Below are positions 1-4,468 of a DNA stretch of 5,486 nt, piece by piece; position 1 is the stretch's first letter; every line of letters starts with the position of its first letter. The stretch is from the sequence record KF044309.1. One strand, given 5' to 3'. Position numbers and translations under genes: made by a program. Under the pieces are notes generated by a model. The model searched no databases. It saw nothing but the letters and a program-made list of their open reading frames with translations, and was not told the DNA's origin. The stretch is from Enterobacteria phage FL68 Tallahassee/FL/2012.

Positions 1-3
1 ACC

Positions 4-33
4 TTGACACAACCATAACTACATATCTATCAT
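4..33 (+). promoter_or_regulatory. Candidate sigma70 promoter for gene A (pA-like): -35 TTGACA at 4-9, 18-nt spacer, -10 TATCAT at 28-33
   Basis: Perfect -35 hexamer TTGACA at 4-9; the best -10 at compatible spacing is TATCAT (28-33). The predicted transcript start (~40) lies upstream of the GGAGG Shine-Dalgarno at 48-52 and the ATG at 62. Position matches the H-A intergenic promoter of phiX174-type phages. Sequence pattern only. Confidence 0.3.
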
Positions 34-61
34 GCCTCCAAATCATCGGAGGCTTTCTTAC

Positions 62-2512: not shown

Positions 2513-2528
2513 AGGGGCTTCGGCCCCT
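2513..2528 (+). terminator. J-F intergenic stem-loop: 6-bp GC-rich stem AGGGGC/GCCCCT closed by a UUCG tetraloop, followed by CTATTT
   Basis: Perfect inverted repeat 2513-2518 / 2523-2528 with loop TTCG. Sits between the J stop and the F Shine-Dalgarno, where phiX174 has its inefficient terminator and mRNA-stabilising hairpin TJ. Confidence 0.45.
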
Positions 2529-2545
2529 CTATTTAAGGATATAAA

Positions 2546-3829
2546 ATGTCTAACGTTCAAACTTCCGCTGACCGTATTCCTAACGACCTTTCTCACCTCG
2601 TCTTCGAGGCTGGCAAAATCGGTCGTTTAAAAACTATCTCTTGGACTCCAGTTGTCGCTGGCGACTCATTTGAAACTGAAATGGTAGGCGCTATTCGCCT
2701 TTCCCCACTTCGTCGTGGCCTTGCCGTCGACTCTCGCGTGGATATTTTCTCCTTCTACATCCCGCATCGTCATATCTATGGTCAACAATGGATTGACTTT
2801 ATTAAAGCTGGTGTTAATGCTACTCCGCTGGCTCCTGTTACCTGCTCCTCTGGCTGGGACTCTGCTGCCTATCTTGGCACTATTCCATCATCTACACTCA
2901 AGGTTCCTAAATTCTTACATCAAGGATACCTGAATATTTACAATAACTACTTCAAACCGCCGTGGGATACTGACCTCACTTACGCTAACCCATCTAACAT
3001 GCCTGAACAGGATTATAAATGGGGTGTTCGTGTCGCTAACTTAAAATCTATCTGGACCGCTCCTCTGCCTCCTAACTCTAAAATATCAGAGACTATGACC
3101 ACTGGCGCTACGTCTATTGATATTATGGGCCTGCAAGCTGCTTATGCTAAATTGCATACCCAACAAGAACGTGACTACTTCATGACTCGCTACCGCGATA
3201 TTATGAAAGACTTCGGCGGACACACCTCCTACGATGGTGATAACCGCCCTCTGCTGCTTATGCGCTCTGAATTCTGGGCCTCTGGCTATGACGTCGACGG
3301 TACTGACCAATCTTCATTAGGTCAGTTCTCTGGTCGCGTCCAACAGACATTCAATCACAAAGTACCTCGCTTCTATGTACCTGAACACGGCGTCATTATG
3401 ACTCTCGCTGTTACTCGCTTCCCTCCTACTCATGAAATGGAGATGCACTATCTTGTCGGCAAAGAATCTTTAACTTATACCGACATCGCTTGCGACCCTG
3501 CTCTTATGGCTAACTTGCCTCCGCGCGAAGTATCCCTTAAGGAATTCTTCCACTCTTCGCCGGACTCCGCTAAGTTCAAAATCGCCGAAGGTCAATGGTA
3601 CCGCACGCAGCCTGACCGTGTCGCATACCCTTATAACGCTCTTGATGGCTTCCCGTTCTATTCTGAACTGCCATCTACTGACTTAAAACAACGTGTCTTA
3701 GTTAATACTGATAACTACGATGAAATCTTCCAGTCTATGCAACTCGCACACTGGAATATGCAAACCAAATTTAACACTACTGTCTATAGACACATGCCTA
3801 CGACTCGTGATTCAATCATGACGTCATAA
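2546..3829 (+). CDS. F: Major capsid protein F
   Basis: 427-aa product, collinear with the phiX174 and G4 F proteins as recalled (MSN(I/V)QT, GDSFE, LRLSPLRRGLA, GYLNIYNNYFK, IDIMGLQAAYA, QERDYFM, SGYDVDGTDQ, SLGQFSGRVQQT, KFKIAEGQWYR, LPTTRDSIMTS C-terminus); same length as phiX174 F. AAGGA Shine-Dalgarno at 2535-2539. Confidence 0.97.
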   Translation: MSNVQTSADRIPNDLSHLVFEAGKIGRLKTISWTPVVAGDSFETEMVGAIRLSPLRRGLAVDSRVDIFSFYIPHRHIYGQQWIDFIKAGVNATPLAPVTCSSGWDSAAYLGTIPSSTLKVPKFLHQGYLNIYNNYFKPPWDTDLTYANPSNMPEQDYKWGVRVANLKSIWTAPLPPNSKISETMTTGATSIDIMGLQAAYAKLHTQQERDYFMTRYRDIMKDFGGHTSYDGDNRPLLLMRSEFWASGYDVDGTDQSSLGQFSGRVQQTFNHKVPRFYVPEHGVIMTLAVTRFPPTHEMEMHYLVGKESLTYTDIACDPALMANLPPREVSLKEFFHSSPDSAKFKIAEGQWYRTQPDRVAYPYNALDGFPFYSELPSTDLKQRVLVNTDNYDEIFQSMQLAHWNMQTKFNTTVYRHMPTTRDSIMTS

Positions 3830-3840
3830 AGCCTATAACG

Positions 3841-3878
3841 TGACAGGGGGAAAAATTTTAATTTTTCGCCCCCTGTCA
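3841..3878 (+). other. F-G intergenic long hairpin (10-bp GC-rich stem plus 5-bp A-T extension, with a 2-nt bulge); candidate terminator and/or complementary-strand origin element
   Basis: TGACAGGGGG (3841-3850) pairs with CCCCCTGTCA (3869-3878); AAAAA (3851-3855) pairs with TTTTT (3862-3866); CG at 3867-3868 is bulged. The F-G intergenic region is where phiX174-type phages carry a terminator (TF) and their complementary-strand initiation signals, primase-dependent in G4 and PriA-dependent in phiX174. Function is inferred from position only. Confidence 0.4.
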
Positions 3879-3928
3879 GGTTGAACAAGCGCAAGCGCGT
3901 TAGCTGCCTAACTTAAAAGGAAACTCAA

Positions 3929-4468
3929 ATGTTCCAGAAATTCGTCAAAAAACATAACGCCCCGTTAACTTCTCAAGCTGCTATCTCTAAAGCTGTTACT
4001 CCATCTATGACCGCCGCCCCTCTTGTTACTACACCTCTCGGCGTGTCTTCTACTCAATTATTCTTGGAACTTACAACCACTGCCGCCGCTGGCGGCTTCG
4101 CTTACGCTATCCGCGTAGACAATTCTAACCCTACTGATAATCAGGTCTTCTCCGTCTGTGCTCACATTACATCTGACGTGGACCCTAAATATATTGCGTG
4201 CCTCGTTCGCTTTGAGGTCACTGCTGGTACCACTCCTACCGCTATGCCTCCTGTCTATGATGCTTACCCTATCGCTGGTTACTATGGCGCTGGCTCTTAT
4301 ACTGTTGAAGACTGCGCTACTATTCCTACTCACGCTGTCTCTTCTGGCAACGATGTATATGTCGGCCTTATGCTTTTCTCTCGCATGTGGCCCGTTGCAA
4401 AACTATCCGGTATCGCTTCCCTTAATCAGGTAAACAAGGAAGTAACCGTTCTCCAACCTCTTAAATAA
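3929..4468 (+). CDS. G: Major spike protein G
   Basis: 179-aa product with the phiX174 gpG N-terminus (MFQ.F...HN), the ACLVRFE block and the SLNQV(I/N)KE...LQPLK C-terminus. AAGGA Shine-Dalgarno at 3917-3921. Confidence 0.95.

Follow-up and report, generated by a model that had tools for sequence, protein, structure and literature searches.

A probable phiX174-type primosome assembly site in the F-G spacer of phage FL76

What is the role of the long hairpin that lies between the coat gene F and the spike gene G of phage FL76? The window, meaning the whole stretch of DNA analyzed here (5486 nt), is 100% identical to the record of Enterobacteria phage FL76 (KF044310.1, Gequatrovirus talmos), a complete circular microvirus genome, and every FL76 position given below is a window position. 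The F-G spacer is the sole long non-coding stretch in this genome, the others being the J-F (39 nt), G-H (10 nt), and H-A (61 nt) spacers. A first-pass annotation considered the role of its hairpin to be undecidable from sequence alone between an origin used by the primase DnaG, a PriA site, and a terminator. Comparison with relatives decides for a site of the phiX174 type. With a probability of about 0.78, the spacer carries a phiX174-type primosome assembly site that would serve as the complementary-strand origin, an assignment that draws on homology to phiX174, a structure under selection, the lack of a G4-type origin in the genome, and the presence of the same module in plasmids. The kind of element is already known; FL76 is a slightly unexpected genome in which to find it.

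Two hairpins between genes F and G

The features of the locus are as follows, with the basis for each in parentheses.

2546-3829: coat gene F (open reading frame map and KF044310.1 annotation)
3830..3928, + strand: F-G intergenic region, 99 nt, from the F stop to the G start (open reading frame map and KF044310.1 annotation)
3837..3882, + strand: hairpin 1, with AAC/GTT as closing pairs; its phiX174 homolog at nt 2308-2351 is the hairpin of the (-) strand origin, of PriA binding, and of T_F (folds, covariation, MN385565.1)
3841-3850 with 3869-3878, + strand: lower stem of hairpin 1 (folds)
3851-3857 with 3860-3866, + strand: AT-rich upper stem of hairpin 1 (folds)
3851..3866, + strand: top of hairpin 1, AAAAATTTTAATTTTT; AAATTTTAATTT is invariant in 12/12 Bullavirinae compared (alignment)
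3879..3903, + strand: conserved 3' flank, GGTTGAACAAGCGCAAGCGCGTTAG; consensus GGTTGAnCAAGCG(C)AAGCGCGnTAG (alignment of phage lineages)
3884..3901, + strand: hairpin 2, AAC-aa-GCG-caag-CGC-GTT; homolog of phiX174 about 2353-2369 with its d(GCGAAGC) core (covariation, folds)
3917..3921, + strand: Shine-Dalgarno-like AAGGA for gene G, 7 nt 5' of the ATG at 3929 (direct sequence reading)
3929-4468: spike gene G (open reading frame map and KF044310.1 annotation)

When the spacer is folded as DNA, 3841-3856 pairs with 3861-3878 to give 16 bp interrupted by a 2-nt bulge (C3867, G3868), so the earlier description of a bulged hairpin of about 15 bp at 3841-3878 was accurate. Beyond a G.G mismatch, three extra pairs, AAC/GTT, join 3837-3839 with 3880-3882. 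Hairpin 1 is the longest inverted repeat of the whole genome and also its most stable hairpin: in a genome-wide scan with a 50-nt sliding window and DNA parameters, it reaches -16.6 kcal/mol, compared to -11.7 kcal/mol for the runner-up window and a mean of -3.2 (sd 2.2). The fold of the spacer has a z-score of -3.9 as DNA, measured against dinucleotide shuffles, and of -3.8 as RNA, and hairpin 1 is retained in both the MFE and the centroid structure of a 401-nt context. With this predicted stability, hairpin 1 on the packaged (+) strand can be considered a candidate SSB-resistant structure.

The second hairpin follows after one base. Its limits (3884-3901) are defined by the only two variable positions of the flank, 3885 and 3900, which covary: the FL76 and WA14 lineages have an A-T pair here, and the PJNS002 and phiX lineages have C-G. 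Apart from these two positions and one inserted C, the 3' flank is unchanged across the phiX, WA14, PJNS002, and FL76 lineages. The short GC palindrome noticed previously at 3889-3899 is indeed there and forms the core of this conserved hairpin, and the same fold is predicted in 6/8 lineages. The extra C of FL76 (3892) falls in the loop. In the FL76 lineage, it also turns the CAAGCG-AAGCG of phiX and WA14 into a perfect tandem repeat, CAAGCG-CAAGCG (window 3886-3897). A third small hairpin in the FL76 MFE structure, TTAG-CTGC-CTAA (3900-3911), was left uncounted because its pairing conflicts with the outer pairs of hairpin 2 and finds no support in phiX or PJNS002.

An AAGGA/AGGAG-type motif is found at the equivalent place before gene G in the relatives of FL76. 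A consensus scan of the F-G spacer returned no promoter (-35/-10-like pair) and no terminator-like site, and an Rfam search of 3700-4050 returned no family at E <= 1. In the GenBank records of FL76 and its relatives, the phiX-type F-G element is without annotation.

Homology, selection, and copies outside the microviruses

Evidence for homology comes from the comparison with phiX174. When the spacer was compared by BLAST with 50,697 phage records (2.3 Gb), it matched phiX174 at 2305-2371 with 77-79% identity (E about 1e-5), and the same search gave no match to G4. Homology is evident when the phiX spacer, TATAACGCCGAAGCGGTAAAAATTTTAATTTTTGCCGCTGAGGGGTTGACCAAGCGAAGCGCGGTAG, is set directly beside that of FL76, TATAACGTGACAGGGGGAAAAATTTTAATTTTTCGCCCCCTGTCAGGTTGAACAAGCGCAAGCGCGTTAG. 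The core of the element is 77% identical to phiX, and the adjoining end of gene F only 64%. A covariance model (R2) built without any sequence of the FL76 clade, from phiX174, ID34, WA11, WA14, EMCL318, and PJNS002, matches window 3831-3911 with 67.1 bits (E 2e-16); a search of G4 and alpha3 with this model gave no match. The position is also the same, in the F-G spacer on the viral strand. The suggestion of a complementary-strand origin is thus supported in its phiX174 PriA form, on the strength of the 77-79% identity and the 67 bits, and unsupported in its G4/DnaG form.

The primosome site of phiX174 is a textbook element, and the sequence AAGCGG is the old n'-site consensus, which is not used as evidence here. 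In the phiX record MN385565.1, nt 2308-2351, which correspond to FL76 3837-3882, are annotated as "Complementary (-) Strand Origin of Replication." According to one published paper, the primosome of phiX binds in the F-G spacer, and a review describes a fork-like hairpin on SSB-coated DNA where PriA, PriB, PriC, and DnaT load DnaB. A saturation-mutagenesis preprint from 2026 treats the phiX hairpin at 2308-2351 as the PriA site overlapping T_F, and it reports 16 detrimental mutations spread over both stems of the shorter hairpin at 2353-2373. In the same mutational scan, many mutations in the 5' stem increase laboratory fitness, so a perfect stem is not needed in phiX.

By homology with phiX174, the following course of events can be proposed for FL76. 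The circular (+) ssDNA would enter the cell and receive its coat of SSB, and hairpin 1 (3837-3882) and hairpin 2 (3884-3901) would remain folded as a fork-like structure. PriA (protein n') would recognize this fork, PriB and DnaT would join it, and DnaB would be loaded from DnaB-DnaC. DnaG would make the primers, and Pol III would turn the ssDNA into the replicative form. In the mRNA, the same hairpin may have a secondary role as a weak T_F-like pause, terminator, or 3' stabilizer. Both PriA binding and the dependence of FL76 on these host factors are what we infer from phiX174. The prediction is that FL76 and its relatives, though grouped with G4, need the PriA-PriB-DnaT primosome at the first step of infection, like phiX174, and this bears on their host range and on the use of these phages as replication probes.

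The structure has been maintained while its sequence changed. The spacers of 12 Bullavirinae were aligned, and they contain four versions of the stem: the FL76/ID2 type, the WA14/EMCL318 type, PJNS002, and the phiX type. Across these four phage lineages, 9/20 pairs of hairpin 1 have changed on both sides. When the FL76 structure is imposed on the alignment, 97.8% of the cells are standard pairs, compared to 37-49% in controls in which the 3' partner was slid by 1-3 columns, and the covariation score of the observed alignment was reached by 0/500 shuffles. A 2-nt insertion in the 5' arm of phage Lilleto (L015 about 155-237) pairs with the CG bulge, making a perfect stem and an element of -28.7 kcal/mol, and in a metagenomic microvirus (L031, 4900-4980, - strand), a C in place of G3840 turns the G.G mismatch at the foot of hairpin 1 into a pair. 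Predicted folds of eight lineages with differing stem sequences give one architecture, namely a long hairpin, one base, and a small hairpin. The two-hairpin structure is under selection.

Among the compared phages, the parts that do not vary are the AAC/GTT closure, AAATTTTAATTT at the top, and, in the 3' flank, GGTTGAnCAAGCG(C)AAGCGCGnTAG. The lower stem has no conserved sequence, and the 5'-arm GAAGCGG of phiX is GACAGGGGG in FL76, so recognition by PriA could differ in FL76 if PriA reads the lower-stem sequence. The natural variants, that is, the four stem versions of the phages together with those of plasmids, provide a ready mutational series for the primosome assembly site, in which the lower stem tolerates change, unlike the AT-rich top and the 3' flank that contains hairpin 2.

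Metagenomes were scanned with the 3'-flank motif and then with a covariance model; since it was this motif that brought up the non-phage copies, the invariance of the flank in them is partly by construction. The scan yielded phiX174 spike-in copies, microviruses, and four contigs without similarity to the FL76 proteins A, D, F, G, and H. Many of the motif matches were rejected as phiX174 spike-in copies or as chance matches without a hairpin. Scans of IMG/VR returned only known lineages and one chance match in a coding region (L028). Contamination is also the probable source of several database entries: 5386-bp "plasmid" records from Vibrio, Cellulomonas, Edwardsiella, and E. coli match the phiX174 F-G spacer and probably represent the phiX174 sequencing control. 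A record of Mycolicibacterium phage J1 matches it likewise, and a 328-kb metagenome contig (FUFK010037421.1) has many matches at a spacing of 5386 nt.

Two of the four contigs, L035 (313-392, which equals NC_011406.1 about 2088-2167) and L070 (30-108), carry the hairpin followed by a GGTTGACCAAGCGAAGCGCGGTAGG flank. L035 matches 2.5-kb enterobacterial plasmids of the pIGMS31 type, with a MobV relaxase, a Col(IMGS31) replicon, and no microvirus genes. The plasmids that host the module belong to the pIGMS31/pHW126 rolling-circle family and occur in Klebsiella, Enterobacter, Pantoea, and Citrobacter. In the pIGMS31 study, the replicons are described as pHW126-like, with a Rep that has the relaxase activity typical of rolling-circle plasmids, and an "ssi-like palindromic sequence" was dispensable for replication, its loss leading to multimerization. 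The other strand of L035 also has a hairpin, a weaker one, at 233-302. On L089, a 13.5-kb metagenome contig, the module (12929-13012, - strand) lies directly downstream of an open reading frame of the SSB family (13021-13509, - strand; Pfam PF00436, E 2e-42). This arrangement of module and SSB gene recalls the leading regions of conjugative plasmids. In L029, a 1.4-kb contig (455-536, - strand), the AT-rich top is replaced by the GC-rich CCAGGC-TAT-GCCTGG, with the flank and hairpin 2 unchanged. That the same module recurs in small rolling-circle plasmids and next to an ssb gene speaks for a single-strand initiation signal that is portable.

Weighing the other readings

One rival reading is an origin of the G4 type. 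FL76 belongs to the G4 genus, its F, D, and H are 81-85% identical to their G4 counterparts, and the G4 origin lies in the same spacer. In such an origin, DnaG alone would recognize an SSB-resistant hairpin, and the primer would start at one of the two CTGs of the spacer, 3873-3875 or 3904-3906, the latter of which lies 22 nt before the G start, compared to 21 nt in G4. Even so, this reading is very unlikely. The spacer is 42.6% identical to the G4 spacer, whereas the mean for shuffled sequences is 42.2%; the alignment with the G4 oric that had been proposed as a check was run with MAFFT and was forced, with no real homology, and the spacer aligns with the phiX174 origin instead. BLAST with the G4 and alpha3 origins returned no FL76-, ID2-, or WA14-like phage. 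A covariance model (R1) built from the G4/alpha3 oric scores 162 bits on G4 and 140 on alpha3, but with filters off it finds at best 11 bits (E 0.26) in the whole window, inside gene H, and a G4-type origin elsewhere in the FL76 genome was rejected on this search. The CTG at 3873-3875 that had been pointed out in the 3' arm is present, but it was rejected as a DnaG signal. The triplet occurs at chance frequency, with 139 in the genome and 2 in the spacer versus 2.5 expected. The arm CTG is absent in PJNS002, shifted in WA14, and base-paired in FL76, whereas the start CTG of G4 is single-stranded just 3' of stem-loop I. At 3904-3906, ID204, Lilleto, and WA14 have CTA instead.

A different possibility is that the element works mainly at the RNA level, either as a weak Rho-independent terminator (the T_F of FL76) or as a stabilizer of the mRNA 3' end that determines the ratio of F to G transcripts. 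In phiX, the homologous hairpin carries the annotation T_F, the phiX terminators T_J, T_F, and T_G are each reported to remove 20-40% of transcription, and the RNA form of the FL76 hairpin is very stable (centroid -26.6 kcal/mol). Conservation among the phages cannot by itself separate a DNA-level from an RNA-level role, since the phiX hairpin doubles as T_F. However, hairpin 1 (GGTTGAAC) and hairpin 2 (TTAGCTGCC) both lack a T/U-tract after them, and the terminator scan of the spacer was empty, so a terminator role in FL76 is at most secondary; the earlier proposal of a terminator keeps some weight from the name given to the phiX homolog and is weakened by the missing T-tracts. The phiX T-run after hairpin 2 has no conserved counterpart in FL76, WA14, or PJNS002. 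Invariance is seen in the AT stem near the loop and in the 3' flank, parts that a terminator does not require. The module is also found in plasmids outside any F-G operon context, and its presence in replicons that pass through ssDNA favors single-strand initiation at the DNA level over a transcriptional role specific to the phages. A mainly RNA-level function is therefore unlikely. As for the remaining readings, filamentous phages and the leading regions of conjugative plasmids use long imperfect ssDNA hairpins as single-stranded promoters, and one non-phage copy of the module adjoins an ssb gene, so host RNA polymerase might read the folded hairpin in this way and make the primer, as in an origin of the Ff/M13 or Frpo type. 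This is highly improbable, given that the spacer has no -35/-10-like pair and that the homologous phiX174 site is the classical system that is independent of RNA polymerase and dependent on PriA. Short AT-rich palindromes are common, but a chance palindrome without function is refuted, to the point of having almost no probability, by a hairpin about 5 kcal/mol stronger than any other in the genome and by compensatory changes across lineages.

In contrast to the F-G spacer, the J-F spacer (window 2515-2535) has a classic compact terminator-like hairpin, GGGGC-TTCG-GCCCC followed by TCTATTT, which is a candidate T_J and lies just below the T-run threshold of the terminator scan. The H-A spacer (window 1-61) has a layout of its own. 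At 4-33, there is a strong promoter-like site, TTGACA, 18 nt, and TATCAT, and directly after it, at 34-53, comes the sole consensus terminator-like hairpin in the genome, GCCTCC-N8-GGAGGC followed by TTTCTT. The GGAGG in the 3' arm of this hairpin is the likely ribosome-binding site of gene A, and a similar layout, with pA and T_H overlapping, has been described in phiX174.

A possible exchange of origins and comparison with known systems

The phiX174-type primosome site is present in several members of the G4 genus, namely FL76, ID2, ID204, the Lille-phages, WA14/ID18, and EMCL318, whereas G4 itself has an unrelated primase origin at that place. The F-G spacer of G4 is 136 nt long and contains three stem-loops and an annotated primer, 3970-3997, that starts at the CTG of CCCTACTG. 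The G4-type origin is well conserved among G4-like phages, and alpha3, St-1, and NC35 carry it in the G-H spacer. The F-G primase-type origin of a G4-like phage is 81% identical to the G-H one of an alpha3-like phage (ID52 L022 24-159; alpha3 L010 4960-5094), and with this identity in two different spacers, the primase-type origin module has moved between them.

These distributions permit a tentative joint reading, rather doubtful as a whole, in which an ancestral PriA-type origin was swapped in the G4 lineage and the specificity of the site resides in the 3' flank with hairpin 2. In its first half, the ID2/FL76-, WA14/ID18-, and PJNS002-like phages would have the PriA type and strict G4 the DnaG type in the same F-G slot. 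The PriA-type site would be ancestral because it is common to phiX174, and the sharing of the site with phiX174, together with the placement of the G4/alpha3 origin in different spacers in each genus, suggests that it was replaced in G4 sensu stricto. If true, the G4 lineage took up an alpha3-like primase origin, a natural swap altering which host replication factors the phage needs.

In its second half, the reading would place the sequence specificity of the site in the invariant 3' flank and hairpin 2 and not in the large hairpin with its variable stem. The flank lies outside the annotated phiX174 origin hairpin (2308-2351) and is common to the rolling-circle plasmids and the ssb contig. If this were so, the detrimental phiX mutations at 2353-2373, now ascribed to termination, would reflect replication. 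A full-text literature search, whose scope did not extend to Rokyta et al. 2006, Shlomai & Kornberg 1980, and Arai & Kornberg 1981, found no statement on the phiX-type spacer of ID2-like phages and turned up no biochemical results on PriA or host-factor use for FL76 or its ID2-like relatives.

The site of FL76 can be compared with four known elements. The oric of G4, alpha3, and St-1 has the same job, the priming of the complementary strand on SSB-coated ssDNA, and in G4 it occupies the same F-G spacer. However, its stem-loops III, II, and I, followed by the CTG start, have no sequence or structural homology to the FL76 spacer, and its start is the invariant CTGC(A/T)AAGCC. The phiX174 T_F is the same hairpin read as RNA, and the FL76 version lacks the U-tract. 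The single-strand initiation signal ("ssi") of the rolling-circle plasmids pHW126, pIGMS31, and pIGRK is alike in having a hairpin and then GGTTGACCAAGCGAAGCGCGGTAGG at the same spacing, and the phage model gives it 75-77 bits. Microvirus genes are absent from the replicon, and the published "ssi" of pIGMS31 is likened to the L035 element by its description, not by coordinates.

The fourth element is the phiX174 site itself; the FL76 genome belongs to a different genus. In both phages, a pair of neighboring hairpins occupies the viral strand of the F-G spacer, with AAC/GTT closing the first, an identical top, AAAAATTTTAATTTTT, and a near-identical 3' flank, GGTTGAnCAAGCG.AAGCGCGnTAG. The lower stem differs, being GACAGGGGG/CCCCCTGTC in FL76 and CCGAAGCGG/CCGCTGAGG in phiX; FL76 is fully Watson-Crick where phiX has a tandem G.A/A.G mismatch, and it has a 2-nt CG bulge that is absent from the phiX hairpin. 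In the loop of hairpin 2, the GCGAAGC of phiX becomes GCGCAAGCGC in FL76 through one extra C. Unlike phiX, FL76 has no T-run after hairpin 2, and its leader 5' of the hairpin is 16 nt shorter.
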